Positions 724 through 55,325 of a stretch of DNA of 64,000 nucleotides are shown piece after piece. Source of the DNA: an uncultured virus (IMG/VR IMGVR_UViG_3300025133_000082). Taxonomy: Duplodnaviria > Heunggongvirae > Uroviricota > Caudoviricetes. Below the pieces are notes generated by a model. The model saw nothing but the letters and a program-made list of their open reading frames with translations. It ran no database searches and was not told where the DNA came from. Within the stretch, counting starts at the first letter, position 1. Each line of letters begins with the position of its first letter. The translations under genes and the position numbers were made by a program. Location: the IMG/VR virus record IMGVR_UViG_3300025133_000082; one strand, written 5' to 3'.

Positions 724-1494
724 TGATAGGGGGCAGATTTAAATCTCTTAGAGAAAAGTTGTTGAAAAGTCAATACTTACTGTTGGTTCTAGGGTCATCG
801 AGGTTCGCTCCTCACCCTTCCCTTAATACTGTGGCTACATGGGGGGTGGGTAAAGTTTTAGTAGAGCGCGAATTTGGGGGGTCTATGATGGTTGATCTCC
901 TCGACCTCCCCGAGCGATAGCTCCTTTTTGGGAGGGGGGTGGTTGTCAAAAACCGCAGTGATGAGCACGTTTTTGTTCAGTCAGAGGATCGATTCTAAGC
1001 ACTCCTCACCCTCCCTAGAATCCAATGGGTATTGGGTAGGGGGGTAAACTCTCGACAGAGAGGGAGGGGGGTGGCTTAAAAAAGATCCGAGCTTGAATTG
1101 TGGTGGAGCGATGGCATCTTTTTTTGAAGACCTAATTCTCCCAGATCGCCCCTCAGAACCTGAACACCTGATCAGGTAGGGAGGGGAGGGCGGAGTAAAA
1201 TTCATACTTCATATTTATGAATTAGTATTTATGAATTATTAATTAGTAAGTCTTAAAACACAAAAGGTGACGGATTATGTCACCTCCCTCCTCTGATCCC
1301 TAAAGCGGAACTCGCTTCCTACTTAATCCTCTGGGGATTCTTTTGGAGAACCTTCCTCTTCTACCCGCTCTGGGAACTTGAGTTGTTGGTCATGTGCTGT
1401 ATAATAATACGTCTCTGGGTCGTAACAGTCGTTACAGTAACGACTCTCGGTGATCAGTCCCTCCTCCTCGCGCTCCTCTGCGCTGGGTGAGTAA

Positions 1495-1914
1495 TTAAAA
1501 TCTCCAAAAACAATAATAAATTGAGAGATACTCGATGTGTCCGAAGAGCGCGATGATGACCTCTTTGGCCTTCTCCTCAGATGAGCATACGACCCACTCT
1601 CCCCTCTCCTCGATCCCCCATCCCTCGATGATCGTCACTACGCCCTCCTTGATGAAGAGCTTGTCTAAGACCTCCTCATCGCTCGATGCGTTTAGTGCCG
1701 AGATTGGAGCGTAGACGACCTCTTTATACTCCTCACCCGCTACGGGACTTGAGACTTTGTAGAAGCTACTCCTCTCGATTGTTGGAATATAACCGCGCTC
1801 CTGAAGAGAGAGAGCGCATACTGCGTCCCATGCAGGATTTTCATCGATGTAGTATCCCTCTGGGAGCGTGATCCAAGTATCCTGTACACTCCGTCTCACC
1901 TTATACTCAATCAT
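1495..1914 (-). CDS. hypothetical early-region protein
   Basis: 139 aa, overlaps the stop of the upstream gene in a packed minus-strand array. Confidence 0.7.
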   Translation of the reverse strand: MIEYKVRRSVQDTWITLPEGYYIDENPAWDAVCALSLQERGYIPTIERSSFYKVSSPVAGEEYKEVVYAPISALNASSDEEVLDKLFIKEGVVTIIEGWGIEERGEWVVCSSEEKAKEVIIALFGHIEYLSIYYCFWRF

Positions 1915-2263
1915 TTAACCACCCTCTCAGTGTGTTGTTGAGATCTGATCGGGTAGGAAACATCGTCAAGAGATGTCCATTCTTCAGAAGATGATAATTG
2001 TAGATCGTCTCCTCCCTGTCTTTCACCTCCACCGCGTACTCATCATCATCAGTTTGGGCGAGAGCATCAAGCATGATGTTTGTCTCCGCCACCTCACTCG
2101 CCTCCTCTTGGGTCGCGCCCCATCCCATCCATTTTAACCCACCCCCACAAACACGCACTCCTGCGCCCCACATAGCCTGATCACTGTCACTGCTTGGGTT
2201 AAAGTATTGCTCGTCTTGGAAAGAGAAGACGAGTCCAAAAGTTGTCGAAAAGTCGTTATTCAC
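1907..2263 (-). CDS. hypothetical protein (start revised to GTG at 2263)
   Basis: The ORF-track start at 2467 overlaps 2292..2552; GTG at 2263 follows AAGGA and removes the overlap. Confidence 0.6.
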   Translation of the reverse strand: MNNDFSTTFGLVFSFQDEQYFNPSSDSDQAMWGAGVRVCGGGLKWMGWGATQEEASEVAETNIMLDALAQTDDDEYAVEVKDREETIYNYHLLKNGHLLTMFPTRSDLNNTLRGWLND

Positions 2264-2291
2264 TGTTAAGATCCTTAGATTAAAAGGGTGA

Positions 2292-2552
2292 TTAAAAGGG
2301 GACTGTGGCGCAGTCAACGCGCTGAAGAAGAGAGGGAATCCGAGCGTTCCACTCAGGTTGAAGGAAGGAGGGGAGCCATTGGCCTGCCTCCTCAAGAGTT
2401 TGTGAGGATGCTGGGCAAGAGGAGTCGAAGTTACCTTCCTCATCGAGTCCACCAATCTCAGTGTCATCGAGGTGACGGGCGATTAGCCCAGCAAAGGTCA
2501 GAAAGATTACACCCCCACAGCAGGGACAATGTGTTGAGACACCAGTAAGCAT
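2292..2552 (-). CDS. small CxxC-containing protein
   Basis: GGAG upstream of ATG; CPCC, H and C residues suggest a zinc site. Confidence 0.65.
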   Translation of the reverse strand: MLTGVSTHCPCCGGVIFLTFAGLIARHLDDTEIGGLDEEGNFDSSCPASSQTLEEAGQWLPSFLQPEWNARIPSLLQRVDCATVPF

Positions 2553-2553
2553 T

Positions 2554-3015
2554 TTAAAATCTCCATGTGGGTAGGATGAGCTTCTCAGAGTAAGATGGTG
2601 ATCGAGAGGTCAAGTCGAGTGAGCGGGGGGTAGGGGAGCCAAACTTACTCCCGATGAAGAAGTCAATGATCTCTGCGCGGATATTCGCGCCAACGTATCT
2701 CCGAGAGGAGAACTCTGAGAAAGAGAATCTCCCCTCCTCCTCCATGACTGCGTAGAGTCCTTTAGAGATGCGAAGCATGAGATGTGAGCGACCGTTGGCC
2801 TGCTCCTCGTATGCCTTGCCGAGTCCCCAGAAGTGACCCGCAATGGCCTTGAGCGAGATGTAACTCCACTCCCCAAACACTCCTGTCGGAGACATGATCT
2901 CCTGAGAGGTGAGTGACCGTTGAGCGCGGATCGCGAGGCGGAAAGACTCAGCCCATGAGAGGCCGAAGCTCTTCTTGAGTTGGTGAGCGAGGCGGTTTAA
3001 TTCTTTGGTAATCAT
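2554..3015 (-). CDS. hypothetical early-region protein
   Basis: N-terminal AHQLKK..GLSWAESFRLA helix pattern seen in small phage early proteins; has its own promoter-like sequence upstream. Confidence 0.7.
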   Translation of the reverse strand: MITKELNRLAHQLKKSFGLSWAESFRLAIRAQRSLTSQEIMSPTGVFGEWSYISLKAIAGHFWGLGKAYEEQANGRSHLMLRISKGLYAVMEEEGRFSFSEFSSRRYVGANIRAEIIDFFIGSKFGSPTPRSLDLTSRSPSYSEKLILPTWRF

Positions 3016-4297: not shown

Positions 4298-4333
4298 AAT
4301 CTATACTACTAGAACCCCCCAAACAATAAAAAA
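4298..4333 (-). promoter_or_regulatory. sigma70-like promoter for the leftward early genes
   Basis: Minus strand TTGTTT-17 nt-TAGATT preceded by a T-tract. Confidence 0.5.
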
Positions 4334-4810
4334 CGTGTATAAATTTTATATATATTTTTTATCGTTAAATTTTATACACATAGATCGAGGGTAGATCTCT
4401 CCCCAAATCTCCTCATGAGGCTGAGAGTATTCTCTGTATAAAGAGCGAAGCTCCCTAGACCCCCTTCTGGACTTGTCAAAAAACCCCCAAAAATGAAAAA
4501 TTGTTAACCCTTGGGATTATCAAAATCTCTATAGAGAAAGTACCAACGTAAGTATATGATTTTATTCATTTCACGTTTTTTGGCCCCCTGTTGAAAGACA
4601 CATCTTTTTAGCACCCCATTTTGGCCCCTTGAGGAACGGTGGAGGGCTGGTCAAAAAACACCATAACGCCCGTACCTAAGGAGATATTACCCAGATCCGC
4701 CCTCCGAGGATCAGAGACACCCAGAGCGGAGGCGTTTCTTCTCGTTTTTGACCCTGATTTTAGGCCCAAAAGGCACTTTTTGACCCCTTTTAGGTCAAAA
4801 TTCACCCCCC

Positions 4811-4840
4811 TTTATTATCGAACAATCGTTCGATAATAAA
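4811..4840. repeat. perfect 13-bp inverted repeat
   Basis: TTTATTATCGAAC-aatc-GTTCGATAATAAA in a non-coding region. Confidence 0.9.
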
Positions 4841-5072
4841 AAGCCTTATAAATCATGGACTTACGACCCTCTTTTGTCACCGATGGGGGTCATATTTTTA
4901 TTAACCCTCTGTATTAGATTTAACACTTGGTTTTATTTTAGTGTTTGATATTGGGTACTTACGTTAATGATATTCAATTATCACTAAGGAGAGATATTTT
5001 TAGAATTGTGTTGCATTTATGATGGGGGTGATCCAATCTCCTCTAATTACATTGCAGGGAGAGGACATTTAA

Positions 5073-5750
5073 ATGCGTATATGTATAGAGGGTAACATGG
5101 GAGTGGGTAAGTCTACTCTATGTTCTTATTTGTTAGGGGGATCTATTCACTTTGCGCCCGAACCGAAATTTGGTGGTTTTGGTTCTGGGTTTGGTATTGA
5201 GATTAAGTATTTACTAGAGAGGTATCGTCTTTGGCGCGAAATTTCAGATGTGCATACGGGGGAATCTCTACTGAAGGAGTATGTCCTCTATGACCGATCT
5301 TGTTGGTCTTCTGAGATCTTTTGGAGAGTCGGTACTTTCCTAGAGGATCTCTCTATGGATGAGTCTAAGCTCCTTCACGAGATTTGGGATACTCTTCGCC
5401 CGAATTGCTCACCACCAGATTGTATCGTTTATCTCGATGCGCCTGTTACCGCCTCCCTTGAGCGCGTTAGGCTGAGAGGTCTTGATGACGCAGAGGTCGA
5501 CATCGCATATCTCGCCCGAATGAAATCGGAGTATGAGATGTGGCTGATACACCAAGAATTGACGTATAAGACTCCTACCCTTAGATATGATGTCTCTCAA
5601 GACATGACGATCTCTGAACAACAACAATTCTCTCAGAGAGTCTTTAGAGATCTTAAAGAGATCTTTCCAGATATATATGACTCCTCTGTCCCGCCCCCAG
5701 AAGATAAAGGTGACTTTTCAACAACTTTTGAGGGTGAATCTCTTGGATAA
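5073..5750 (+). CDS. deoxynucleoside kinase (dNK family)
   Basis: IEGNMGVGKST P-loop, PEP, DRS motif, PDCIVYL and RVRLRG lid. Confidence 0.9.
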   Translation: MRICIEGNMGVGKSTLCSYLLGGSIHFAPEPKFGGFGSGFGIEIKYLLERYRLWREISDVHTGESLLKEYVLYDRSCWSSEIFWRVGTFLEDLSMDESKLLHEIWDTLRPNCSPPDCIVYLDAPVTASLERVRLRGLDDAEVDIAYLARMKSEYEMWLIHQELTYKTPTLRYDVSQDMTISEQQQFSQRVFRDLKEIFPDIYDSSVPPPEDKGDFSTTFEGESLG

Positions 5751-10513: not shown

Positions 10514-11386
10514 CTATGAAGACTTAGACTTCTCTTGATAGAACTCTTTTAGAATATCCGAAGCTAAGAGGGCCATTGGGCCTCGATACTGCCCTGTGAG
10601 TTTAACTCCTGTCGCGAACCCAGACTCAAAGAATGAGTCACTAGAGACTAACGCGCTCAATCCTGTTCGTTCCCAAGAGTCTTCAGTATCTATCTGATTA
10701 GGGTCACCCAAAATAATCACAGTAGAGTTAGACCCCACCCGACTTAACGCGGTCATTAATTCATGTACGCTCGTATTCTGAGCTTCATCGATGATCACTA
10801 CACAATTCTCAAAGTGTAGACCTCTGAGTAATTCTAGAGGCTGAAAAGTGATCTTCCCCTCCTCTTCTAATTGATATAGATGATGCTCAAAGTTTTCTCC
10901 TAAAATCTTCCTTAGAGACGCTAAGTAGGAATCTATATACCCCTCCATTTTCTCTCGATGATCCCCAGAGATTGTCCCCATCGCATTACTCCGTAAACCC
11001 ACATAAACAGTAGGTTTACACAGTATCAAGGATCTACCTTTCCGAAAGACTTCATTCATGCCGTAGGCTAAGGCGCATGAAGTCTTACCCGTACCCGCCC
11101 CACCTATACCCACAATCAAGTCATAATGAGTTAATGCCCAGAAGAAACAACTTTGTGTTGCATCCTTTGGAGATAACCCTTGATAAGATAAACCCTTAGT
11201 GTTTATACGGACTAATTGATCACCTTCGTAAGCGACCAAAACACTTTGTGTCTCACATAAGGTTGTTAATAAAAAAAATAATGAGTCAACACCCTCCTCT
11301 CCCAACACATCATTACCCACTTTCCCCTCTTTATAAATTTTATTTATTACACTACTCTCTGTAACGATCCTTTTTAATTCAAGCAT
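10514..11386 (-). CDS. phoH: PhoH-family ATPase
   Basis: GGAGTGKT, LLRG, IIDEAQN, LSRVG, LGDPNQID. Confidence 0.92.
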   Translation of the reverse strand: MLELKRIVTESSVINKIYKEGKVGNDVLGEEGVDSLFFLLTTLCETQSVLVAYEGDQLVRINTKGLSYQGLSPKDATQSCFFWALTHYDLIVGIGGAGTGKTSCALAYGMNEVFRKGRSLILCKPTVYVGLRSNAMGTISGDHREKMEGYIDSYLASLRKILGENFEHHLYQLEEEGKITFQPLELLRGLHFENCVVIIDEAQNTSVHELMTALSRVGSNSTVIILGDPNQIDTEDSWERTGLSALVSSDSFFESGFATGVKLTGQYRGPMALLASDILKEFYQEKSKSS

Positions 11387-11474
11387 AGAGCCTCCTAAAT
11401 CGGTTTACTCTATTCTATCAAATTACAATTACTCTACGCCTTTTCATACATCATAAAAAGAATAGGAGACTCTT

Positions 11475-11597
11475 ATGTATGACCATGAAGCAAAAAAGAC
11501 CTTATTATTTCTCATTTTAGTCTTTTGGACTGTCGGGATCTTTAAAAGTCTAGGTTATCATCTTGATACCGAATGGTTATCTTCACTCATGCCGTAA
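11475..11597 (+). CDS. 40-aa single-TM micropeptide (not in ORF track)
   Basis: AGGAG at 11464-11468 then ATG; MYDHEAKKTLLFLILVFWTVGIFKSLGYHLDTEWLSSLMP. Confidence 0.5.
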   Translation: MYDHEAKKTLLFLILVFWTVGIFKSLGYHLDTEWLSSLMP

Positions 11598-12280
11598 GGG
11601 ATGGGTGGTTCTATTACGTTTAACTCATAAAGAAAGTTAAACGTAAGAGGGTACAGGTCACTTAGATAATCTCTTATCCCCATAGCGACCTCTCGCGTTT
11701 CTTGTTGTGTATGTGAATCCAACCTCAAGACTAGGAACTTTATAAAGTTATTTAAGTTTCCACTCATCCAGAACGAGGTGAATTGAGATTGAGGTAGAAT
11801 CATTCGAGCTTGCTCTCTAGCAACCCCACCCTCAATTAGAGTTTGATATGTCTGGACAGAGTTTTCAATTATCTCTCTCATTATCGCTTGATCTAAATAA
11901 CGGTCATTAAGTTTCCCCTCGCTACACTGAAGATCATTCTTACTCTGTGATCTTAGGTGGTCAGGTTGATAAAACTTGTTGATATTCTTTGAAGTATATC
12001 TCCTTGAGACTTCATTATAAGAGAAGGTTCTATGTCGCATAATTTGTGATCGCACAAATAATGGACAATTCACTCTGAAGGTGATGTAACAATGCTCAAG
12101 AGTAGAAGTGTGCTTGTTTTTTATCAGGTAGCGTAAGAGTTTTTTGTCCCTATCCGATAGATCGCGATCCTCCATCTCTCCTGTTTCATCAAACGAGACT
12201 CTTGCAGAGTCGACTATCGTTTTATCGTCTCCCATACTTGAGATTAGATCTACTCCAATATCTGCATATTTAACTGTCAT
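11558..12280 (-). CDS. thyX: flavin-dependent thymidylate synthase
   Basis: SARVS, H.STLEH, RHRTFSYNEVSRRY signature, REQARMILP, HTQQETR. Confidence 0.96.
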   Translation of the reverse strand: MTVKYADIGVDLISSMGDDKTIVDSARVSFDETGEMEDRDLSDRDKKLLRYLIKNKHTSTLEHCYITFRVNCPLFVRSQIMRHRTFSYNEVSRRYTSKNINKFYQPDHLRSQSKNDLQCSEGKLNDRYLDQAIMREIIENSVQTYQTLIEGGVAREQARMILPQSQFTSFWMSGNLNNFIKFLVLRLDSHTQQETREVAMGIRDYLSDLYPLTFNFLYELNVIEPPIPYGMSEDNHSVSR

Positions 12281-13719
12281 TTAGATTCTTTCTTAGGTGA
12301 GACTAACTCTATACCCACTACACCGTTGTTTGGTTCAACTCGGAACATTGCTAATTGAGGTCTATTCAGACTGTACCCCATCAGTTTGTGCCAACGATCT
12401 GTACCGCTCAAGGCAGGCATTGTCCAGACTCTACAACCATTATACTCATTCACTTTTAAAATCAAGCTGTGAAGATGTCCTGTGAACCATTCCCAATTAC
12501 CTGCACATTCTCCCCAATCCTTCGGCTTCTCCCCCGACATCAAATTTGGGAGTTTATTATGTTTAACAGAATCCCCATGATTAAACCCTAGAAGGGATTT
12601 ACCATAACGTATGTAGGCAGAACCCTGTGACCCGTCAATAACTTCTATATCATCGTCAGAATTGAATCTCGCAGAGAGCATCATGCCGAGCATACCTGAT
12701 AACAGTCTATCGTGGTTCCCTGTCATTGCCACAATTTTCACAGGTGCGCTTGTAGATAGTCTTAATATGATAGACTCCATCGTTGAGTAAGCAATCGCCA
12801 TCATCTCCGATACGTCAGTATCAGTATCCATCGGTGTACCCCTCTCAGTCGTACCTCGATAATTATCGACATGAATCATGTCACTACCACAAGTGATTAC
12901 CCAAAAGTCAGGTACTCCCCATGTTCTCTCTGCCTTCTCTTGTGCTTTTGCGGTAGTATTGATCGCCCTAGAGGAAGCAATTTTAGAATTATAACCGTCT
13001 ACTCCACGTTTACCTATGTGTAAATCGGTTAGACCCAGTATAGCCACATAAGGTTTATTTGACTTTTCAACAACTTTTCTTGGTCTTGGGATCTTTATTG
13101 TCTCTAATCGATCTCCGATCCCTGTGATTAAATGTTTTAAAAGTGCTTTATCTTCAAAACCTTTCTGCGCTTCTCTCAAACTCTTCTGATGAGCTTTAAC
13201 AAGTACCCGTTGTTCTTTTGCTTTTAAGAGAGAGTCTACAAGAGACTCTTCTCCCTCCGAGATAACTGTTTCAGAAGAGAATGGAATACTATCATGAGTC
13301 TTACCCAAGACACTGAGGATCTTCTGAACAGTGACTCTGCTTAATAAATATTTTCCAGCGATTTGGTTTATGGTCATTCCGCCAGAGTAATTAGAATAAT
13401 CTTTTAATAGACTATCAATCTTATCTCGACTAACGCGAACACTTGGAGGTTGGTCGGGCAACCCAAAAAAGATGTACTCTTTCTTCGTATCATCATAATG
13501 ATAACTAGATTCATCATTACCAAAAAAAGAAGTCTTCACTTGTTCCGTAGAGACGATTGTTTCTTTTTCAACATCTAAGGGTACTTCTATCTCAAAGTAT
13601 AGGAAACCATCGGCTCTTCTTTCTCTTTTGATCTTTCCCCTCCGAACCCTTCCCCTGAGGGCCTCACCACTAATCCCTAATACTGAAGTCGCCTCTCTTC
13701 TATTTAACCATTTTTTCAT
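12277..13719 (-). CDS. calcineurin-like metallophosphoesterase with N-terminal HTH
   Basis: DLHIG, GSD..H, GNHD, HGD, GHLH; N-terminal WLNRREATSVLGIS...RGRVRRGKI excisionase/MerR-like HTH. Confidence 0.85.
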   Translation of the reverse strand: MKKWLNRREATSVLGISGEALRGRVRRGKIKRERRADGFLYFEIEVPLDVEKETIVSTEQVKTSFFGNDESSYHYDDTKKEYIFFGLPDQPPSVRVSRDKIDSLLKDYSNYSGGMTINQIAGKYLLSRVTVQKILSVLGKTHDSIPFSSETVISEGEESLVDSLLKAKEQRVLVKAHQKSLREAQKGFEDKALLKHLITGIGDRLETIKIPRPRKVVEKSNKPYVAILGLTDLHIGKRGVDGYNSKIASSRAINTTAKAQEKAERTWGVPDFWVITCGSDMIHVDNYRGTTERGTPMDTDTDVSEMMAIAYSTMESIILRLSTSAPVKIVAMTGNHDRLLSGMLGMMLSARFNSDDDIEVIDGSQGSAYIRYGKSLLGFNHGDSVKHNKLPNLMSGEKPKDWGECAGNWEWFTGHLHSLILKVNEYNGCRVWTMPALSGTDRWHKLMGYSLNRPQLAMFRVEPNNGVVGIELVSPKKESK

Positions 13720-17795: not shown

Positions 17796-18068
17796 TTATC
17801 TCTTATGGATGAAGAGCTTCATCGCAGTTTTCTCTTCACCATCGATAATCTCTGTAGAAAACCCAGAGGTAAAGAAAAGATCATAACCGTTTGATGCGAT
17901 CATACTCCGCGCTATTGTTGCGCTTTTTAACATCTGATTTACTGCACCAGCACCAATCGCGGTAACACTCACTTCAATATCCTCTTGGAGGAATTTGGTA
18001 ATAGAACCTGCTACTTTGTCTACTTCAGATCGACCTGCAACCTTTAGATTTATTTTCTTATTAGCCAT
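17796..18068 (-). CDS. spoVS: SpoVS-family (Alba-like fold) protein
   Basis: LKVA..S...KVAGSI...AIGAGAVNQMLK...IAR...G.DL....GF....IDGEEKTAMK matches SpoVS end to end. Confidence 0.92.
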   Translation of the reverse strand: MANKKINLKVAGRSEVDKVAGSITKFLQEDIEVSVTAIGAGAVNQMLKSATIARSMIASNGYDLFFTSGFSTEIIDGEEKTAMKLFIHKR

Positions 18069-19377: not shown

Positions 19378-19479
19378 TTACACCCCCCAGAAACCAAAAT
19401 CGTCATCATCGTCATCATCGTCATCATCAGGGTTTACATGATTCCAATCATCCCACCCTTCATAAGGCTCAATACTCAT
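19378..19479 (-). CDS. 33-aa poly-Asp/aromatic micropeptide (not in ORF track)
   Basis: ATGA overlap with the parB stop; MSIEPYEGWDDWNHVNPDDDDDDDDDDFGFWGV; ends 2 nt before the next ATG. Confidence 0.65.
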   Translation of the reverse strand: MSIEPYEGWDDWNHVNPDDDDDDDDDDFGFWGV

Positions 19480-20354
19480 TTTTTACCCCACGATCCTGTA
19501 GCCTCACATAAGGTGTTTAAGCCGTTTGTGAGTCCACTAAGGTCACTTAACCCAAGCCTCTCAAACTCACAAGAATTAATCGCGATTTGGAAGGAGAAAA
19601 AAGCCATCTCATCCTTTATGTAATTACCTCCAAGATCTAAAAGAGCAGATCTTACTGCTGAAGCAAGTACCTCTCCAGATTGTGAATCCTCTTCTTTCTT
19701 TGAGTTATCAACCTCTTCATCGTCTTCAGTCTCCCCACTCTCCTCCTCTTCTTCAACAAACTCATCTTCTCCAATCACCATCAAGCGATCAACCTCTCCC
19801 CTCAGATCTCGCGCTGTCATGCCCTCAATAGCATGATCAATTAAACGCTCAACGATGTCCTCTGGAGCATCATTTAAAGCTCTCGCTTGATTCACAGAGA
19901 TAGAATCGTCTTGGAGAGCGTCTTGGATCATAGGAACCATATCCAAAAGAGACAATCGTTGTGTGATCATCGTCTTTGAGAACCCAAGAGACTTTCTGAA
20001 GACCTCAAGGTCTTTGCCGAGATCAACAATTCTTCGTATAGCCACTGCCTCCTCTAAGGGTGTCAGGCTCTTACGACTTACATTCTCTTGGAGGTTGATA
20101 ATGAGGAGATCTGTCTCATCCCCCTCACATAGATTCACCTCAACCTCTGTCCATCCTAATTGTGAGATCGCGTTGAACCTCCTGAACCCATAAATCAATC
20201 CGTAATTACCATCTTCTTTTTGAGCCACTCCGAGAGGTTGATGTAATCCCGTCTCTGAGATACTTTCAAGAAGATCGTCTACGTTGAGATCTCTTCGGCA
20301 ATTTGTGATGAATGCTGTATCAATATCGGATAACTGTATTTTCTGTATATTCAC
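19476..20354 (-). CDS. parB: ParB/Spo0J-family protein (CTPase domain + HTH)
   Basis: R......L.ESI...GL.QP, LIYGFRRFNA, EN..R..L.P.EEA, HTH LGFSKTMITQRLSLL. Confidence 0.9.
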   Translation of the reverse strand: MNIQKIQLSDIDTAFITNCRRDLNVDDLLESISETGLHQPLGVAQKEDGNYGLIYGFRRFNAISQLGWTEVEVNLCEGDETDLLIINLQENVSRKSLTPLEEAVAIRRIVDLGKDLEVFRKSLGFSKTMITQRLSLLDMVPMIQDALQDDSISVNQARALNDAPEDIVERLIDHAIEGMTARDLRGEVDRLMVIGEDEFVEEEEESGETEDDEEVDNSKKEEDSQSGEVLASAVRSALLDLGGNYIKDEMAFFSFQIAINSCEFERLGLSDLSGLTNGLNTLCEATGSWGKK

Positions 20355-20409
20355 TTTTTTCCTGTCGTGTCATGGGGGGTGTAATGTTGACTTTTCAACA
20401 ACTTTTGTT

Positions 20410-21920: not shown

Positions 21921-22167
21921 TACGACTCGCTTTAATCTCAGAGATCTTGATGGTTAATTGTCTCTCAACCTCTGCCCAAGCTCTCTCAAACTCTTTGGGT
22001 ACATCCTCCATGAATACTGGTAATTCGATCCCTGCTTCAACTCTTGCAGACTCATAGTTACCCAAGTTAAGGGTCATACTCGCCCCTGCTTTTACGATTA
22101 CTTTTTCTTTAGTCATTGTCATCTTCCTTAAATTCTGATTCGGGAACCCCACCAATAAGAGTCCCAA
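21907..22167 (-). CDS. conserved small phage protein (start probably near 22122)
   Basis: TLNLGNYESARVEAG motif common in phage recombination operons. Confidence 0.7.
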   Translation of the reverse strand: MGLLLVGFPNQNLRKMTMTKEKVIVKAGASMTLNLGNYESARVEAGIELPVFMEDVPKEFERAWAEVERQLTIKISEIKASRNEPK

Positions 22168-22672
22168 AAGCGTAATTAATTTTTTCTGTGATCTCTGGCC
22201 TTATTCTCATTAAAAGATATTCTTTTTTTAATCTTCTTCTCTCTTGTTTAACGATAATTTTTAAGAGTCCAACTTCATACTCGGTATATAATCGATAATT
22301 CTTCTTCGATCTGTACTGTGGGAACGGAATGCGATCAAGGTGTACCCAAGATTTTATTTGGGTCTTTGGTATCCCTATGATTTTTGCCGTTTCTGGGAGT
22401 GTATACATCATACACACGCAGTACCGAGAATCGTCTTCAGGATGAATAATCTTCATCCTAACTCCTCTTGGTTTGTTACCATGTAACTTCTTGTACTCAT
22501 TCTCTTGATGCTTTTTTAAAGCCCTTCTTCTCTTACGGTCTTCTCGTCTCTTTTTCTTCTGTTCCTCTACCCATTCTGGATCTTTCTCATATCGGTTCCT
22601 TAAACGACCCAAGATCCTCTTCTTATTCTGTTTATAATACTCTCTCATGTACTCTGCTCGATGTACCATCAC
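22109..22672 (-). CDS. MerR-like HTH DNA-binding protein
   Basis: YTLPETAKIIGIP..QIKSW....IP.P.....YRLYTEYEV; basic N-terminal helix. Confidence 0.75.
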   Translation of the reverse strand: MMVHRAEYMREYYKQNKKRILGRLRNRYEKDPEWVEEQKKKRREDRKRRRALKKHQENEYKKLHGNKPRGVRMKIIHPEDDSRYCVCMMYTLPETAKIIGIPKTQIKSWVHLDRIPFPQYRSKKNYRLYTEYEVGLLKIIVKQERRRLKKEYLLMRIRPEITEKINYAFGTLIGGVPESEFKEDDND

Positions 22673-23004
22673 TTATTCTCCTTAACAGTCAATGTCTTAA
22701 TCTCATTAACTGTCGCGCACTTATCGAATAACGAAGGATCTAATCTCCCTGATGAGACTAAACTCTCCACTTTCTTTAAACATACTTTGTAATCGGCATA
22801 ATCTTCAGGCGAAAACCCTTGATGAGCTAATTCAAACTCTAACTGCTCCAAGTCATAGGTAACCCTAAGACGGGTAGAAATTTGCGCTCTTATTCCATCT
22901 TCTTCAGGAACCTCAGGTTCCAAGAGGATCTGATCTCTCAATTTGTTTTTTTGAGTGGTTAAATCTTTGATCTGATCTAAGATCTTTTTATATTCGGCAA
23001 TCAT
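22669..23004 (-). CDS. hypothetical phage protein
   Basis: 111 aa with coiled-coil N-terminus; AGGA upstream. Confidence 0.7.
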   Translation of the reverse strand: MIAEYKKILDQIKDLTTQKNKLRDQILLEPEVPEEDGIRAQISTRLRVTYDLEQLEFELAHQGFSPEDYADYKVCLKKVESLVSSGRLDPSLFDKCATVNEIKTLTVKENK

Positions 23005-23057
23005 GTCTCTGTCCTTATTTTTACGATTTAAAGTCTAATTATAACTTTGTTGAAAAG

Positions 23058-24320
23058 TCAAACATATTTATAAGAATGTCTCTCGTAGACCTTTCTTCTC
23101 GCCCACCAGTATGCTGTAAGTACCTCTATTCTTGAATCAACGATGTCTAGAACAATAGGAGACTTTTTATTTGGCGAATCCCTCAAGATTCTACCTACGG
23201 ATTGAGTAATAGAAGTCTTAGGAGTGGCTAAAATAAGAGTGTCTAACTCAGGGATGTCTAACCCCTCTTGAGCCATAGCGTATGTACCTACAATTACATC
23301 GGCCCTAGAAGAGATCACCCTAGCCTTTGAGGTCATTCCACCAATATATTTATCAACAGTAAAATCCTCGGTCACGAGTTCTTTGAGGAGACTAACCATC
23401 TCTTTTACATGAGCGACTCTTTCACTCAAGATTAAAATCTTTCTCCCTGTCTTTAAAGCCCTTAAACAATAAGTGACTATAAGATCAGTCCTCTCAGGAA
23501 CTTTCGACACCATAGTGACCAATTTTGAAGTATTAACCTCCCCATTCCAGAGCTTATAAGAGCGGGGCGCAAAATGAGTATCAGTATCAATCCTCCAGAT
23601 TGAAGGAACCCTAGTATGTCCTTCCATCTCATAGACAATCGGCCCTATGTGGAGGAAGATAATCTCCTGAAGACCATCTTTTCTTTCGGGGGTAGCGGTA
23701 AGTCCTATCCTAAACCTAGCAGGCATCTTTGAGATTGCTTCCTGCCACATCGGTGCGCCATATCGATGAGTCTCATCGCAGATGAGTGTCCCGAACATCC
23801 TATAGATTGAAGGGTCGTACTCCCTCTTAGGATTTACGAGACTCTGAACCATCCCGATCACAATATCTTCGTCTCCTGTAGGGATAATATCCCTCTGCCA
23901 CAAACCTACCTTTGCCTCTGGGAGAAACGTCTTAATGCGATCTACCCATTGGTCGACTAAGAAAGACTTGTGGACTAAAACTAAGGCCGTTCGATTTAAC
24001 CTCCTGATTATATCAAGACCCATCACCGTCTTACCCTTACCGCAGGGAGCATATAGAACCGCTCCCGTTCCTCTCTCTCTTAAATGATTCATAACGGCTT
24101 CTACAGCAGGCTTCTGTTCATCCCGTAGAGAGATGGGTGTAAATTCAGATAACTCCTCTCCAAGCGTCTCTAAAGGGTCTTTATGGGCAAACCCCTCATA
24201 GCCTCTCGGTACGAGTAACCCCTCTGAAGATTCCTTATAGAGAAGGTGGTCTTCTTCTTTCCTTAGAGTAAGACTCTCTAGGTCACTTAAAGACCAATCT
24301 TTCTTTAGACCCCACCCCAT
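23058..24320 (-). CDS. SF2 DNA helicase (UvsW/XPB-like)
   Basis: LRDEQ, APCGKGKT, DETH, GLTATPER.DG, EGLDIP.LD, QSVGRILR. Confidence 0.92.
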   Translation of the reverse strand: MGWGLKKDWSLSDLESLTLRKEEDHLLYKESSEGLLVPRGYEGFAHKDPLETLGEELSEFTPISLRDEQKPAVEAVMNHLRERGTGAVLYAPCGKGKTVMGLDIIRRLNRTALVLVHKSFLVDQWVDRIKTFLPEAKVGLWQRDIIPTGDEDIVIGMVQSLVNPKREYDPSIYRMFGTLICDETHRYGAPMWQEAISKMPARFRIGLTATPERKDGLQEIIFLHIGPIVYEMEGHTRVPSIWRIDTDTHFAPRSYKLWNGEVNTSKLVTMVSKVPERTDLIVTYCLRALKTGRKILILSERVAHVKEMVSLLKELVTEDFTVDKYIGGMTSKARVISSRADVIVGTYAMAQEGLDIPELDTLILATPKTSITQSVGRILRDSPNKKSPIVLDIVDSRIEVLTAYWWARRKVYERHSYKYV

Positions 24321-30434: not shown

Positions 30435-31328
30435 TTACCATCCAATCTCTTCGCCCTCTGGGCGAGAATCTTTCTCTGTGTCGTACTGTGAACCCCATGA
30501 AGGCTTATCTTCAATTTCACCGTCAATTATCATAGGGAATATACTGTTTCGGAACCCCCAAAATATGGGCATACTCGGATAACCATTAATCTTAAACTTA
30601 GAAGAGATCTTCTCCCAGTCTCGTATACAAGAGATTAAAACCTGCGCCACAATTTCTGGACTGTAAATGTTTATAAGCTCCTTAACGTGCTTTAGATCTC
30701 TACCAAAGAATCTTGGAGGTGGCGACTTCCACTTTTTCTGCCACTCCATTGCTACCACTAATTCCATGTCCTTAGAATTGTAATGAGTAGGCTCTTTATC
30801 TAAGAAACTCTGAAGCCTCTTCCAGTGAGAGGGAGAGGTTTGGACAGGTGTCCTCCCCTTAGACTTATCTTTGGCGAGTTTCATCGAAGCATCAATTAAA
30901 CCTTTAAGTCTAGAGACACCTTCAGGTGGCGCGGGAGTATCCTTTCCATCACACTCAAGTGAAACACTGCCCCCAGAATACCAATTCTGTGGTTCAGGTT
31001 CAGGATCAGCGATCCCCACTAAGCTCCGCACAGTAACCAATAATGGTGTGAAGTCATAGGTTTTGTCTCTCCCTGATAATTTAGGAATCAGATACCCTTT
31101 GTAACTTAATGACCTGAGATAGGTTCTAATCGTTTGTTCTGACTTACCCGTCTTCTCGGCAAAAAATCTTGTTGAGGGGAAGGGGTTTTTACCCATCCAA
31201 GAATAATCCATCAGGTGGATGATGAGCATAGCCTCTTCCATAGAGATGTTAAGACTAGAATACTTATCTAAGAGTATCCGACAGAAAGGCGCAAATCCTC
31301 TTTCATCGATCCCATGCCACCGAATCAT
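30435..31328 (-). CDS. putative replication initiator (winged HTH, DnaD-N-like)
   Basis: PFPS..FFAEKTGKSEQTIRTYLRSL..KGYL...YDFTPL; immediately upstream of the DnaC-like gene. Confidence 0.7.
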   Translation of the reverse strand: MIRWHGIDERGFAPFCRILLDKYSSLNISMEEAMLIIHLMDYSWMGKNPFPSTRFFAEKTGKSEQTIRTYLRSLSYKGYLIPKLSGRDKTYDFTPLLVTVRSLVGIADPEPEPQNWYSGGSVSLECDGKDTPAPPEGVSRLKGLIDASMKLAKDKSKGRTPVQTSPSHWKRLQSFLDKEPTHYNSKDMELVVAMEWQKKWKSPPPRFFGRDLKHVKELINIYSPEIVAQVLISCIRDWEKISSKFKINGYPSMPIFWGFRNSIFPMIIDGEIEDKPSWGSQYDTEKDSRPEGEEIGW

Positions 31329-31618: not shown

Positions 31619-31912
31619 TTATAGATGTTTTTTATAAACTCCCATTGTGATCCTTGAACCGATTAAAGAATCCTTTAGATCCCAGTCCCCCACTCTAGTG
31701 GGTATCCTCCCACCACCCATAAAATGAAGAACAACTGTCTTCTTACAACCTCTAAAACTTATGTCTTTCAATACTTTAACTGTTATAAGACTTACCTCCT
31801 CCCCAAGAAGAGAAGGATCATCACACATAAAAGAGTTTATACTTCTCGCCAAAAGATTTAGATAAGGTCTACGGTTAATGAGTGTCTTTTCAACAACTTT
31901 CATATCTACCAC
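31619..31912 (-). CDS. hypothetical protein
   Basis: AAGGAG SD with GTG start. Confidence 0.65.
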   Translation of the reverse strand: MVDMKVVEKTLINRRPYLNLLARSINSFMCDDPSLLGEEVSLITVKVLKDISFRGCKKTVVLHFMGGGRIPTRVGDWDLKDSLIGSRITMGVYKKHL

Positions 31913-31950
31913 CTCTCCTTAAGGGTTAAATATGTCTTTTCGACAACTTT

Positions 31951-40451: not shown

Positions 40452-40822
40452 CGTGTTACCTCGCCTTCAATTCTACATCGACCTTTGATCAGTTTTGTGA
40501 CGACATTCTCAGCAGATTTTACTTCTAAGTCGTATACCGCCACCGATGGAGGGAGTAGTGCAGTTTGCTCATAACCTATGGTTAGATTAATCGCGCCCTG
40601 TGTTTCATATATTTGAATCTGATCTGAGTCAGAACTATCTAATTCTAAGAGAACGACACTCGAACCCGTTGAAGATCTAATCTGCATCTTCGCAGAGTAA
40701 CCTGCCATATTTATTGGATTATTCGCGCTGTTCAACCAGTACAAAGCCAATTTATATGTGCTTCCCTGCTCAACAGTTATATTGTAAATTCCTGAAATCA
40801 TTCTTGAATCCCTTCTATACAA
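40448..40822 (-). CDS. virion structural protein (BppU-N-like Ig fold)
   Basis: YNITVEQGST...PINMAGYSAKMQIR...VYDLEV...G. Confidence 0.7.
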   Translation of the reverse strand: MYRRDSRMISGIYNITVEQGSTYKLALYWLNSANNPINMAGYSAKMQIRSSTGSSVVLLELDSSDSDQIQIYETQGAINLTIGYEQTALLPPSVAVYDLEVKSAENVVTKLIKGRCRIEGEVTR

Positions 40823-41067
40823 AGATCTAACGCTATAAGAAGTTCTTCTTCTTGGGACATTCTCAAGAGCATCCAGTCCTTAGAGACAGTAAAACTACCA
40901 TCTTCGTTCTCGGTTATATCTGACTTTTCAACAACTATTACCACTTCACTAGGCTCTTTTTCTTTTTCGAGAAGAGCGCAGAGCGGAGCGCAACCGCTTA
41001 TCGTGACGAGTCCAAGAGATAGACACAAGCTCCGCAGAATCTGCGGTGTTAAGTTTTTTAATCTCAT
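40798..41067 (-). CDS. putative outer-membrane lipoprotein spanin (Rz1-like)
   Basis: GAGGA SD; signal peptide with lipobox ISG-C; overlaps the upstream TM gene in another frame. Confidence 0.6.
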   Translation of the reverse strand: MRLKNLTPQILRSLCLSLGLVTISGCAPLCALLEKEKEPSEVVIVVEKSDITENEDGSFTVSKDWMLLRMSQEEELLIALDLCIEGIQE

Positions 41068-41170
41068 TATAAACCTTCCTCTTAGGTGGTTCATCAGTGA
41101 TTTTATCACAAAAGTGGTCTAAAAGCAGAGGGACTATCATTGATAAGATCCCGATGATTGCTTCAATCAT
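40949..41170 (-). CDS. putative inner-membrane spanin (Rz-like)
   Basis: N-terminal TM and basic C-terminus; between the holin-like gene and the lipoprotein. Confidence 0.55.
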   Translation of the reverse strand: MIEAIIGILSMIVPLLLDHFCDKITDEPPKRKVYNEIKKLNTADSAELVSISWTRHDKRLRSALRSSRKRKRA

Positions 41171-50826: not shown

Positions 50827-50829
50827 AGT

Positions 50830-52080
50830 TTATTCCTCTCTCTGAGTCCATTGGGTTTTACCACGCCTGATCTCTACGAACTTATTATAGTTCTCTTGAG
50901 TCCTACCCGTTCCGCCTTCAAGATCTTCTTTTAGATCTTCTCCTGCGATCATATTAATAATAGTTTGGATACGAGAAAATTCAGTATCTACGCCTGCTTG
51001 TATGTGCATAGCTACACCGCCCCCAAAACTATATTCCTGTCCCAATTGTCGAGAGGTGTTTAGGATATTCTCTCCTGTACTCTTTAAAAGAATATCCTTC
51101 TCATATGTCTCCGACTTTGGATAAGAAGGGTGAAGAGGGGCATTGATAACTGCCCTCCCAAAGTCCTCACTGTCCCCTTTACCAGCACAAATAAACAACG
51201 CTAGAGGAGAACCAAAAGTAAAGAAGTCTATCAAAGACGCGATAGTCGAGATTAATTGAGTAGCAAGTTCTGTTATCCGAGATATACGGAGATTAACGGT
51301 ACGAATTATCTCATTGATCTTATCAAAAAAACCTTTAAGTGTAGATAACTGAAGGAGAGTCTCTGTTAATCCATACAGTAACTTTTTAAAAATAGGTATG
51401 TCAGAAAGAGCATATGTCTTTCCCCAATCAGGAGCCATACCAGAACCACCCCCCTCCACCCTAAACTCTAAATCCGTAAAGGGGTCATTCAATTTACCTA
51501 GACCCATCAGGTCATCACTAAGGCCGTCAAACCCCCTAAACTTCTTTAGAATATTATCAAAAACTTCCATCAAAGCATTAAGATCAGGTAACGACCATAT
51601 ACCTACAACCACCGCACCATGACCGTCCTTATTTAATATAGGTCTATTATTGTCCTCTTTATCGAGATATGACATACCGATGTCGTACAAAATCTCGTTT
51701 GGCCTTCTTCTAGATTTAGGTGACGTAGGGAAGTGGTAAAGAAACGATAACGAAGTCCCCTGTAACAATTCTATTAATTGCTCAAGGATCTCGTTCACTA
51801 AAATGTAAACCCCCTGAAGAACGTCTACTGAGATCCTCAGAACTAATGCCAAAAGATCTACAGCACTACTAAGTAAATCAACCACTCCCTGCAATACCGC
51901 TAACCCCGTTAAGATTCCCTCACTTGCAGTCTCTATTATTTCAGGGATCGGAGATAACTTTTCTCTTATCTGTTCTTCAGTTAGACCCCGTACCCATTTT
52001 AGTTCAAAGTCTGATGGGAGAGCCTCTACAGCACTCTCAATATCATCTTCTCTTGTTAATCCTCTTTGACTTGTGGGCAT
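50830..52080 (-). CDS. helical hypothetical protein in the baseplate operon
   Basis: 416 aa with long amphipathic helices. Confidence 0.75.
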   Translation of the reverse strand: MPTSQRGLTREDDIESAVEALPSDFELKWVRGLTEEQIREKLSPIPEIIETASEGILTGLAVLQGVVDLLSSAVDLLALVLRISVDVLQGVYILVNEILEQLIELLQGTSLSFLYHFPTSPKSRRRPNEILYDIGMSYLDKEDNNRPILNKDGHGAVVVGIWSLPDLNALMEVFDNILKKFRGFDGLSDDLMGLGKLNDPFTDLEFRVEGGGSGMAPDWGKTYALSDIPIFKKLLYGLTETLLQLSTLKGFFDKINEIIRTVNLRISRITELATQLISTIASLIDFFTFGSPLALFICAGKGDSEDFGRAVINAPLHPSYPKSETYEKDILLKSTGENILNTSRQLGQEYSFGGGVAMHIQAGVDTEFSRIQTIINMIAGEDLKEDLEGGTGRTQENYNKFVEIRRGKTQWTQREE

Positions 52081-52399
52081 TGGTGATCTCTCTTGCTAAT
52101 TGTGCTTTTATCATTGTCTTTGCGTGGTGGGTTTCTTTTTTTATTGAGGCCCAAGTGATAAAGTCTAATGTGTCTACTGCGGTAGATTTAACTAATGAAG
52201 AATCTCCTGTCCCGCTTTCAAGAAGAGTTTTAAAATCCTCAAGACCTTCTTTTAATTTTACCATAAATTCTTCTTTTGTTTGGCCTTTCTTATCCCAAGG
52301 AGTGATTAACCCCTTATCTAACCCTGTTATTAACTCCCCAACCTTCTCCTCTATATCGTTAATAGACTCTGTAGTTTTTGGAGTATTTTCTTCACTCAT
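52043..52399 (-). CDS. hypothetical protein
   Basis: 118 aa, acidic N-terminus and basic C-terminus. Confidence 0.65.
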   Translation of the reverse strand: MSEENTPKTTESINDIEEKVGELITGLDKGLITPWDKKGQTKEEFMVKLKEGLEDFKTLLESGTGDSSLVKSTAVDTLDFITWASIKKETHHAKTMIKAQLAREITNAHKSKRINKRR

Positions 52400-52426
52400 C
52401 GCTGTGCCTTTTTTGTTGAAAAGTCA

Positions 52427-53245
52427 TTAATTATACACAATATGTTTGTCGATAAAATTAAGAACCGCTTCCTTTAACTCCCCAAACCATCTTAGATCAA
52501 TATCGAAGAAGTCTAAATAGATCCACCGACAATCTGTCCAAACCGTATATGAGATTAACCATAGAGCGTACACAAATATTATGAAACCTAAGACCTGTTT
52601 TAAAAACCTTAAATAATCAGAACCACTCCAGTCCGTCCCCCATTTCGGTTTATTTACTCTTTTGACCTTCTCATTCTCTTTCGGAAGGGTAAAGTCAGAA
52701 GATTTAAACCCTACAGCGTGAATCATCATAGGGTTCTTAACTCCTTTTAGACGATAACTCCCCAAATTCTTAAAATGAGCACCCTTTGGAGTAAAGGAAT
52801 TAAGACGGTTCTCAGATGCCCTTCTCGCAGAGGTTGAGAGTAACACCTGACCTCCACTAGCCAAACTCATTATTCTTGCGCCTATCGGCTTCGCAAGACC
52901 CTCTACCTCTATTCTCTTCGCTCCTTGGTCGACATAGATCTTCTTATTCTTCTTTAGTACCACTTCTCCCCAATGTATTCCGATTCTCGCCTTAAACCCT
53001 GTCCTTGCAGGGATTGATTGGTGGTAGGCGAGTGCAAAGTTCACTGCATCTATCGTTCGATCAAAGATCACTAAGAACCCATCCGTCTTATCAATCTCGA
53101 TACCGTTAAATCGATAGATCATAGTCCTTACCAATTTATCATGATAAAAGAAAACCTGTGCTGATCTTCGACTCCCTACCCTCTCAATAAAACGAGTAGA
53201 ATCAACTACGTCTAAGAGTAGGAGAGCTTTTAAAGAGGTTTCCAT
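52427..53245 (-). CDS. class III nucleotide cyclase-like protein with C-terminal TM
   Basis: LLDVVDST, IDKTDGFL..F, ARIGIHWGEV, GARIMSLA.GGQVLLS, LG.YRLKGV..P; TM VLGFIIFVYALWLISY. Confidence 0.85.
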   Translation of the reverse strand: METSLKALLLLDVVDSTRFIERVGSRRSAQVFFYHDKLVRTMIYRFNGIEIDKTDGFLVIFDRTIDAVNFALAYHQSIPARTGFKARIGIHWGEVVLKKNKKIYVDQGAKRIEVEGLAKPIGARIMSLASGGQVLLSTSARRASENRLNSFTPKGAHFKNLGSYRLKGVKNPMMIHAVGFKSSDFTLPKENEKVKRVNKPKWGTDWSGSDYLRFLKQVLGFIIFVYALWLISYTVWTDCRWIYLDFFDIDLRWFGELKEAVLNFIDKHIVYN

Positions 53246-53556
53246 TACTTCTCTACTTTAGCCTGTAATTGTGCAACCGTAACCTTTAAAGCGTTTAAGT
53301 CCTCCCAGATCTTAATTCGTCCATCCCTACATTGAGTCCCTATCTCTGTGTTCTTCTCAATGTAGGTATTAACTTTTTTTTCAATAGAGTCCTCTAACGC
53401 ATCTAACTTCTTCTCTTGTTGTTCGTTTAATTGAACTGCACTGGCTAGGTCGCTCTTAATACTATTTATAAGCGAAGAGATATACCAAATCACGCCTATA
53501 ACAGACCCTAAGATGGATATAACCTGAATCAACATCTCTACAGTGATAGTCATCAT
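53245..53556 (-). CDS. N-terminal TM + coiled-coil protein
   Basis: Hydrophobic residues 8-30 then heptads; its stop overlaps the cyclase start. Confidence 0.7.
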   Translation of the reverse strand: MMTITVEMLIQVISILGSVIGVIWYISSLINSIKSDLASAVQLNEQQEKKLDALEDSIEKKVNTYIEKNTEIGTQCRDGRIKIWEDLNALKVTVAQLQAKVEK

Positions 53557-53588
53557 GACCTCCTATTTTATCGCTAGTATACAATAAT

Positions 53589-53918
53589 TTAAGAGATTGT
53601 ACCTACACCTGTTCCTGTACCCGTACCACCACCTGTTATTGGGACAGTGTTCGATTGTGCGACCGCAGTACCTTGGACATTAACAGTCGCAGGAGGGTGT
53701 AAGGTAGTTAGATTCGTATTCACAGTCGAACTAACCACTGCTCCTGTTGTAAGCCAAAGATGGATCGCTTGAGCGTATCCCTGCGCTCTCTGTGCGATAG
53801 AGGCTTTAGTTACAGGATCAATCACAGGAGGTACTCCGTTTTGAGTGTATGATTGGAGAATTAAAGTTTCATCTACTGCGATTAATGCCGTTGCTAAGGC
53901 TTCGGGGACAAGTGCCAT
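53589..53918 (-). CDS. small structural protein (possible spike tip)
   Basis: Follows the spike gene; T/G-rich end GTGTGTGVGTIS. Confidence 0.55.
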   Translation of the reverse strand: MALVPEALATALIAVDETLILQSYTQNGVPPVIDPVTKASIAQRAQGYAQAIHLWLTTGAVVSSTVNTNLTTLHPPATVNVQGTAVAQSNTVPITGGGTGTGTGVGTIS

Positions 53919-53930
53919 ATCTATTCTCCT

Positions 53931-55325
53931 TTAAACTTTTGAAAGAAAAACTGACTCACTTAGAATCAGTGGCTGTGTTGGTGCGGGTACTGTTAAAAAT
54001 GTAGATTGTGCGGTAGTCAATGCGACATTGGCTAAAATTGAAGACGCTTGAAGAACAGGATTAGGCCCACCAAACCCTGTAGTCACCCCTCCCGATAACT
54101 GAAGCGTGGTGAAGAAGGTCTGTAAAGTACTCACGAGAGTGTTTAAGAATAAATTTAATTGTAGACCCATTACAGCAGGCTCTTTTGTAAGAGGTACAGG
54201 CCCAAGACCTAGTGTTACAGTCCTAAGAGCAGGAGTCAAATTACCTAAATAAACTTGACCCCCTAAACCCCCTCTCGCCTCTACACCGTATACAGAGATG
54301 TTCTGAGTAGGATCTCCAGAGATAAACTTACTCGTACCGCCCGTTCCGACAATCGTACAAGACTCAGATACATACATTGGTTCAGGGATAGAGAGAGCGT
54401 TATTAAAGTTTAAATAACCCGTACCCGCGCCCACAAACTCAAAATCTCCAAAAGAAGATAGACTAAAATCACCGCCTGCGTTTACCTCAAATAGATTCGC
54501 TAAGGTAGCAGTCAAACCCCCACCCGTTAAGTTTATATTGTCCTTTATCGTTACAGAACAATTACTCGCAGAATGAGTCTGTGACCTCTTAATCTTTGTA
54601 GTGACATCACCATTCAAAATTGTTGAAAAGTCACCATCTACCTGTGAACTAACTGCACCTGAGATCTGTTGTCTCTTATCACCTGCAATAACCTCTACAG
54701 TGTTGGTCGAGCGCGTTCTGATATTCCCCTCCGCGATTATATTAACCGTCCCGTCTGGGAGTATCTCTATATGAGAACCCTTAGAGTGAAAGATCTGAAC
54801 CCTCTCTCCACCCTCAGTGTCATCAAGTTCAAGCATATGACCCGCAGGAGTTCTGATGATGGTGACCTCTCCATACTCCGCTTCATAAGAAGACGCAGGT
54901 ACTCCGAAGCTCCCCTTCATCCCATAATCACTACCATCATAATCAGCGCGACCATGAGCAGGCACAGGTGAGGATTCTAATTGATACTCTGAAGACTCCT
55001 CAATCGCAGAACCGTCCGTAGAGTGACCATCAGTAATCTCGTCATAAAAACCCCCTACAAATATCGGATGCTCTACCATCCCCTCCTCACACTCTATCCA
55101 AACTAAAGAGCCGATGGGAGGTACGCTAAAGAATCCAGAATCTCTGCCCCCATACATAGGGAAACAGGGAGTAGCCCAAGGACTCACACCTGTACCATAT
55201 AACTCTACGTTCTCTACTCGGATTCGCCCTAACTTCTTAGGGTCTTGATTCTCAGCAACCCTCGCCCTGCGCTTCCCATAAAAACGATTATAATACTTGT
55301 CTTCGTACTCGGATAAATGAAGCAT
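53931..55325 (-). CDS. baseplate central spike (gpV/gp5/VgrG OB fold)
   Basis: FYGK.R..V..NQDP.KLGRIRV, WA.PC, PPIGS.VWI..E.G, TPAGH.LELDDT.G.ER. Confidence 0.92.
   Translation of the reverse strand: MLHLSEYEDKYYNRFYGKRRARVAENQDPKKLGRIRVENVELYGTGVSPWATPCFPMYGGRDSGFFSVPPIGSLVWIECEEGMVEHPIFVGGFYDEITDGHSTDGSAIEESSEYQLESSPVPAHGRADYDGSDYGMKGSFGVPASSYEAEYGEVTIIRTPAGHMLELDDTEGGERVQIFHSKGSHIEILPDGTVNIIAEGNIRTRSTNTVEVIAGDKRQQISGAVSSQVDGDFSTILNGDVTTKIKRSQTHSASNCSVTIKDNINLTGGGLTATLANLFEVNAGGDFSLSSFGDFEFVGAGTGYLNFNNALSIPEPMYVSESCTIVGTGGTSKFISGDPTQNISVYGVEARGGLGGQVYLGNLTPALRTVTLGLGPVPLTKEPAVMGLQLNLFLNTLVSTLQTFFTTLQLSGGVTTGFGGPNPVLQASSILANVALTTAQSTFLTVPAPTQPLILSESVFLSKV

Follow-up and report, generated by a model that had tools for sequence, protein, structure and literature searches.

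A dispersed pseudo-palindromic site in an uncultured myophage clade and an orphan ParB-family protein as its candidate reader

The 64-kb stretch of DNA analysed here (the window; IMG/VR record IMGVR_UViG_3300025133_000082, an uncultured virus of the Caudoviricetes) is part of a myophage genome of ~85 kb, that is, a phage with a contractile tail, and carries modules for replication (an initiator, a DnaC-like loader, DnaB, primase, PolA and a helicase), RecA, a ParB-family protein, nucleotide enzymes, baseplate and tail. Scattered through it are 11 copies of a short site with the core (G)ACTTTTCAACAACT, one of them just ahead of the gene for the ParB-family protein (19476..20354, minus strand; 292 amino acids), which we propose as its reader. 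Two further genes, for a MerR-type helix-turn-helix (HTH) protein (22109..22672, minus strand) and an HTH_36/DnaD-like initiator (30435..31328, minus strand), encode rival readers that we disfavour below. The original prediction that no parA is visible holds for all 73 open reading frames (ORFs) of the window and extends to its relatives, as no match to the ParA family was found in any of five records (G002, G004, G005, G008 and G009, of which two are complete).

Along the window, the site GACTTTTCAACAACT lies first at 757..771 (-), where it is intergenic, 30 bp (counted from the 18-mer form) before ORF 232-723, followed by a copy with one mismatch at 2240..2254 (-) within ORF 1907-2467, read as DFSTT. 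Exact copies are found at 5712..5726 (+) within the 3' end of a deoxynucleoside kinase gene (DFSTT), at 13061..13075 (+) antisense in an exonuclease-like gene (12277-13719; VVEKS), and at 20389..20403 (+), 34 bp before the parB start. A copy with a degenerate right arm (23045..23059, -) separates the helicase gene from ORF 22669-23004, and a pair 50 bp apart precedes the replication module, at 31884..31898 (+; one mismatch) and 31934..31948 (+; two mismatches, 21 bp before 31912). The remaining copies are an exact one at 40922..40936 (+), antisense in a small lipoprotein-like gene (40798..41109, minus strand, start uncertain), one with a degenerate right arm at 52411..52425 (-), just before ORF 52043-52399 and 4 bp after a TATAAT, and one with one mismatch at 54618..54632 (-) within the baseplate spike gene (DFSTI).

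This 11-site dispersed array is a confirmed feature of the window. The exact 18-mers of the original prediction were re-found at 754-771 (-), 5712-5729 (+), 13061-13078 (+) and 20389-20406 (+), as were the further exact 13-mers at 23047 (-), 40922 (+), 52413 (-) and 54620 (-) and the mismatch variants at 2237 (-), 31884 (+) and 31934 (+); the largest gap, put at about 11.5 kb, measures 11,489 bp. In 200 shuffles of the window that preserve its proteins and their codon usage, the exact 13-mer averages 0.035 copies (maximum 1) where the window has 8, and the 18-mer with at most two mismatches averages 0.36 (maximum 2) where the window has 9; among dispersed 11-mers of the window the site ranks first. 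Five copies stand ahead of start codons as had been claimed, with 8-37 bp between 18-mer and start. Within genes the site is indeed read in unrelated proteins, as DFST(T/I) or VVEKS/T; the account needed amending in that the 40922 copy is in frame too, so that 6 of the 11 copies lie in genes. The site, described as non-palindromic, is better read as the pseudo-palindrome ACTTTT-CA-ACAACT, in which 4 of 6 pairs match; the form in the related genome G002, AGTTTT-CA-AAAACT, has perfect 6-bp arms, found at 8 sites of that genome. Conservation of the trailing TTT of the 18-mer across relatives is moderate to weak.

The ParB-family protein has 10 full-length relatives at 41-99% identity, and a search from the ParB alignment gave 9 viral and 29 metagenome loci. 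The same search returned no relatives in bacterial genomes, and so pointed to no host; a viral scan with the ParB protein alone gave one unrelated locus, and searches of cultured phages with ParB or the polymerase singly gave distant matches only. Records G002 to G009 are syntenic with the window, two of them (G002, 84,945 bp with terminal repeats, and G009) being complete genomes, and the nearest record, G001, merely repeats window positions 22.9-58.8 kb. The expected recurrence of the site in ParB-bearing relatives is borne out: found de novo, the same word ranks first in every ingroup record, with 12 copies in G002, 15 in G003, 20 in G004, 15 in G005, 16 in G006 and 7 in G007, three weak matches having been dropped beforehand. 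Outside these, 48 of the matches listed (80 of 124) in a 15-mer scan of viral sequences, together with loci L001 and L002, led to 48 searched records, picked mostly for one chance match, of which three (G023, G049 and G014) hold more than one site. G023 (G+C content 56%, 5 exact sites) and G049 (57%, 2 sites) proved to be clade members; of the other 46 records, 44 have a single match, G056 has none, and G014 has 2 sites over its 129 kb, with two 10-kb stretches of it inspected and found free of clade genes. A multi-copy array is thus seen only in this clade, within which the same 14-mer is retained at G+C contents of 38-57%. A 17-mer scan of bacterial genomes gave at most 2 copies per genome among the matches listed (80 of 121), which is uninformative on enrichment in a host.

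The copies show no preferred orientation to local transcription (55 versus 46 of 101 assigned sites, with 5 unassigned), and an RNA-level role was rejected because half of the sites are antisense. They are spaced more evenly than expected by chance in G002 to G006 (p 0.008, 0.013, 0.0007, 0.0005 and 0.044), with a borderline result in the window (p 0.074) and none in G007 (p 0.41), and the pooled gaps of five genomes differ from an exponential (p 0.004), these tests not being independent since the genomes are kin. In aligned orthologues the in-gene sites are mostly lineage-specific, present in part of the orthologues only, as with the 13061 site, which among 9 aligned orthologues is common only to locus L013; sites therefore turn over while their density stays. 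The site ahead of parB is at the same place in relatives, in the opposite orientation to the window. An 11-bp direct repeat, ACTTTT-N5-ACTTTT, is visible in the consensus of both the window and G002, and CTA recurs 4 bp upstream of the core in G002 (10-11 of 12 sites) and 4-6 bp upstream in G004 and G005, as an unexplained second element. A 65-copy repeat in G009, considered as an analogue of the array, was rejected as ribosome-binding-site context.

The site also varies by lineage, and nearly all copies within a genome vary together. All 11 window sites have C, T and C at positions 2, 5 and 10; in G002, where the site is AGTTTTCAA[A/T]AACT and the A form is the palindrome with perfect arms, position 2 is G in 12 of 13 sites and position 10 is A or T in 13 of 13, and in G007, where it is ACTTGTCAACAACT, position 5 is G in 7 of 9. 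Loci L015, L036 and L040 share the variant AGTTTCCAA[A/T]AACT, and L019 has ACTTTCCAACAACT. When nearly every site of a genome has undergone the same change, this means a single reader acting in trans. The 40922 site, at the same place in the lipoprotein-like gene of all 7 ingroup records aligned, shows what this does to a protein: of its 14 columns 10 do not vary, compared with 31 of 120 and 21 of 120 on the two flanks, and the encoded residues track the site variant of each genome, reading VVEKS, VVDKS (G007), VVENS (G004) or VIENN (G002) to fit the local DNA. The earlier suggestion that the constraint is on the DNA, read in trans, is upheld by the swept variants and by the way in which the protein follows the site. 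Should the reader prove not to be ParB, the array would still show strong selection at the level of DNA that overrides protein sequence.

The ParB-family protein matches Pfam PF02195 and PF17762 (ParB_N and HTH_ParB) above cut-off and TIGR00180 at 81.6 against a cut-off of 58.45, with an acidic linker and a helical C-terminal domain following. Its CTPase motifs N-x-R, G-F-R-R and E-N-x-x-R and its HTH are intact, the motifs being invariant in the ParB alignment, and it begins at the CTPase domain, with no N-terminal ParA-binding tail. Sequence and fold comparison place Noc, ParB and KorB as its best solved relatives, Noc giving the best sequence matches in PDB (E 4e-26) and KorB following (E 4e-15, template modelling score 0.54). 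A dimer through residues 238-286 is predicted with a score of 0.52 against 0.00 for the best control, with contacts that agree in at least 63% across runs and a predicted local distance difference test score of at least 71; 20 of 30 solved pairs attain this mark, as does 1 of 23 single chains, and it may be passed by family likeness. The C-terminal domain gave no family match, and an atlas search with it gave no match of 0.9 or more. At the four specificity positions, aligned on Noc, the protein has K-R-D-N where ParB has R-T-A-G and Noc has Q-K-K-R (PMC7383237), and a new site is therefore to be expected.

Besides the restriction of the array to this clade, its swept variants, free orientation and even spacing, and the intact motifs of the protein, further observations make ParB the leading candidate for the reader, in agreement with the original prediction. 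Its recognition helix, GWSKT..[T/S]QR, is nearly invariant across the clade; 15 of 26 ingroup records have a site no more than about 60 bp from the start of parB (L019 and L021, whose sites there are degenerate, not counted); and G023 keeps 5 exact sites together with the ParB helix, although the N-terminus of its initiator and the helix of its MerR protein have been rewritten. A version of the motif also stands ahead of parB in the outgroups G058 and G009. The 14-16 bp pseudo-palindrome is probably where the orphan ParB-family CTPase encoded by the phage itself loads or finds its operator, and this protein would act as a KorB-like genome-wide regulator.

Several points weigh against this. Position 201, a specificity-setting residue in ParB and Noc (PMC7383237), is N, R, S, G, T or M within the clade and gives no clean code for the site variants; G023 and L022 share K-R-E-G yet differ in site, and G008 shares K-R-E-N with G003 but has 0 ingroup-type sites. 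No strict site precedes parB in 11 of the 26 records, a set that includes near-duplicates, and two structural genes score as high or higher for an upstream site (4 of 5 and 4 of 6). The helix is kept in G009 as well, where there are 2-3 near-matches in 105 kb, and is nearly the same in G008 and G058, which have no ingroup-type array. GFRR stands in place of the GERR of Noc and ParB, for which reason hydrolysis is uncertain. A small HTH gene and a promoter-linked sister motif of the outgroups, both described below and absent from the original prediction, leave room for other readers.

The first such reader would be another DNA-binding protein of the phage: the MerR-like protein, the initiator, or an HTH protein of ~75 amino acids whose gene lies outside the window, flanked by those for terminase and portal. 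The small protein is present in all 6 records spanning terL-portal and has conserved R and K residues in its helix, and 9 of 11 aligned rows agree in the helix of the initiator. A variant of this explanation is a protein binding head to tail on the 11-bp direct repeat, for example in repression or packaging, and the presence of that repeat in the window and G002 consensus speaks for it. Against readers of this group, the trailing TTT is weakly conserved and the sites are not clustered like iterons. None of the three proteins has the site at its own start (MerR 0 of 16, initiator 0 of 8, small HTH 0 of 4), the MerR helix varies widely among genomes sharing one site, and the initiator N-terminus has diverged in G023 with its 5 exact sites. 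As readers, the MerR-like protein and the initiator, both put forward in the original prediction, are thus weakened by helices that diverge while the site stays, and we regard a reader from this group as unlikely.

The second explanation is a host factor, whether RNA polymerase reading a promoter element (TTGAAA/TTGACA on the other strand), a host regulator or a nucleoid protein, the lineage variants then following changes of host. It draws on the outgroups, where the sister word of G008 and G058 is GTT(C/A)TTGACAAAC on the other strand, centred on TTGACA and lying on -35 boxes. In 22 of 24 cases this motif is oriented along the direction of transcription, often with a -10 element (enrichment in G008, p 0.0005), which counts against ParB as well. 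In G058 one copy stands just before parB, without a good -10; in G009 the best match coincides with the -35 of the promoter that precedes parB; and a site of G007 corresponds in position to a promoter site of G008, which again favours a host factor. The CTA noted above could be a promoter's second element. These facts fit an operator laid on promoters and later untied from them, and plain promoters with ParB uninvolved explain the sister motif too. In the ingroup, however, no -10 is enriched at 16-18 bp after the hexamer TTGA(A/C)A (window p 0.33, five more genomes 0.32-0.97, G007 0.046), and half of the sites, if promoters, would drive antisense transcription of genes. The pre-parB site is flipped between window and relatives, the 14-mer is kept across the whole range of G+C content, and unrelated phages have no such arrays, all of which makes a host factor a rather improbable reader.

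That the sites are DnaA boxes, or a true centromere array whose complexes with ParB let ParA or SMC of the host segregate a plasmid-like prophage, is very improbable. A 9-mer within the site is one mismatch from the DnaA-box consensus, which counts for a DnaA reading; by the same consensus the window holds 3 true boxes, and the lineage variants alter the DnaA-invariant end of the site and so depart further from the box. The sites are also dispersed. For a centromere one may cite the terminal repeats of G002, which make circularisation possible, and the resemblance of the ParB fold to partition proteins; against it are the lack of a ParA match in the five records named above, the lack of any tyrosine integrase match in the same five, the spread of the sites, which are not clustered, and a ParB without the ParA-binding tail, as that motif is defined in PMC12704722. 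Segregation driven by ParA is therefore an unlikely job for the array, and the partition role raised in the original prediction is weakened, there being neither ParA nor tail.

Returning to ParB as the reader, comparison with known systems suggests that the array would work most like KorB/OB or Noc/NBS and not like parABS. KorB of the IncP-1 plasmid RK2 is likewise a ParB-family CTPase with an HTH, with sites near and far from promoters (in either orientation in the present case), and its clamp represses from over 1 kb away, a long-range reach by sliding that would fit the window array (PMC11790492). RK2 KorB differs in having a tail that binds IncC (ParA) and in working with KorA (PMC11790492), whereas here ParA, the tail and any known lock protein are lacking, the site is an imperfect palindrome and the element is a tailed phage without integrase; for a clamp-locking partner like KorA or TrbA, the MerR-like protein and the small HTH protein are no more than candidates. 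Noc of the Firmicutes is an orphan ParB paralogue that spreads from sites scattered over the replicon (PMC8429893, PMC7383237). The present protein differs from it in its TIGR04285 score (89 against a cut-off of 315), in having K-R-D-N for Q-K-K-R and in lacking an N-terminal amphipathic helix, and no NBS-like site was found in the window. Cluster O mycobacteriophages carry more than 30 17-bp dyad repeats of unexplained function, in and between genes and without orientation bias, in genomes that have a ParB-like gene and no integrase or parAB (PMC4351075). We liken them to the present array by layout: theirs is a perfect dyad of another sequence, and the authors of that paper did not assign the repeats to the ParB-like protein. 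The stoperators of Cluster A, twenty or more asymmetric 13-mers per phage genome read by one phage protein, are alike in that respect but follow the direction of transcription (PMC9283540), unlike the present sites with their 55 to 46 division, and here there is no such repressor or integrase. From parABS the array is set apart by the want of a cognate ParA and a ParA-binding peptide, by sites spread evenly rather than clustered near parAB or an origin, and by the absence from the window of any canonical parS within 3 mismatches of the consensus. By these comparisons the array belongs with none of parABS, Noc and the stoperators, and it is set apart by a symmetry that is imperfect, by lineage variants that have swept its sites and rewritten a protein on the way, and by a sister state linked to promoters.

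From the site, its spread, its lineage variants and the anatomy of ParB, all of which were observed, we infer how binding, CTP use, spreading and function might be joined. A ParB dimer, held by its C-terminal helices, would bind the site through two HTH domains; cytidine triphosphate (CTP) would close it into a clamp that then slides over the neighbouring kilobases, and with a site every 3-7 kb no part of the genome would be beyond the reach of sliding ParB. Sites that immediately precede genes, among them parB, would serve as operators and those within genes as loading points. The likeliest job would be KorB-like transcription control across the genome, in the timing or damping of early and replication genes, with perhaps some coating of phage DNA. 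It is possible, if doubtful, that a ParB operator once lying on -35 boxes, as kept in G008 and G058, became an orientation-free grid for loading CTP clamps in a phage without sign of lysogeny, evenly spaced through turnover and written into proteins, so that ParB coats the chromosome for silencing, anti-silencing, or the shielding or delivering of enzymes. A role as helper of DNA-modifying enzymes was considered and is a minor possibility, since the ParBs in PMC13229309 are without the HTH that the present one keeps; the neighbour resembling a tRNA-ribosyltransferase, described below, gave no solved relative.

Orphan ParBs are widespread in phages and largely uncharacterised (PMC12704722), and a published link between one and a dispersed array was not found in a literature search, most subscription papers being outside its reach. 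The present clade makes the question of their role directly testable, using a single protein and a handful of oligonucleotides, with a short candidate site, natural variants of both site and ParB, and outgroups in which the motif overlaps promoters. It also suggests a reader worth trying on arrays that lack an explanation, the Cluster O repeats among them.

Other features of these genomes may be noted. The first 145 bp of the window hold 3.8 copies of a GC-rich 39-bp tandem repeat, an AT-rich non-coding stretch lies between divergent genes at 4300-5070, and either could be the origin or genome-end region; the GC skew is flat to about 6 kb and negative beyond. Downstream of parB, a clade-conserved 466-aa protein (15679-17079, -) matches a PHROG of queuine tRNA-ribosyltransferases (E 3e-23), is without a Pfam or PDB match, and may, to go by that resemblance, be a DNA base-exchange enzyme. 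A SpoVS-family gene (17796-18068, -) is 53-71% identical across the clade, and a class III nucleotide cyclase-like gene (52427-53245, -) sits within the baseplate module, its G002 homologue being located elsewhere. At 40798-41170 (-) a membrane-anchored ORF overlaps the lipoprotein-like ORF, an arrangement kept in 7 records and laid out as a spanin pair; on our reading of that layout, made without a family match, the lipoprotein-like ORF is the o-spanin, and the pair therefore suggests a Gram-negative host. An Rz-like PHROG match lies at 53245-53556. In G023 (11053-11882) recA and a resolvase gene are missing between a small conserved ORF and parB. Near the end of record G005 (72549-72564) there is one perfect palindrome of the canonical parS type, which could recruit a host ParB, be due to chance, or belong to host DNA. 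G002 encodes two small, very basic proteins (36872-37261 and 65020-65511), not found in the window and 76-90% identical among ingroup relatives, which possibly condense DNA.

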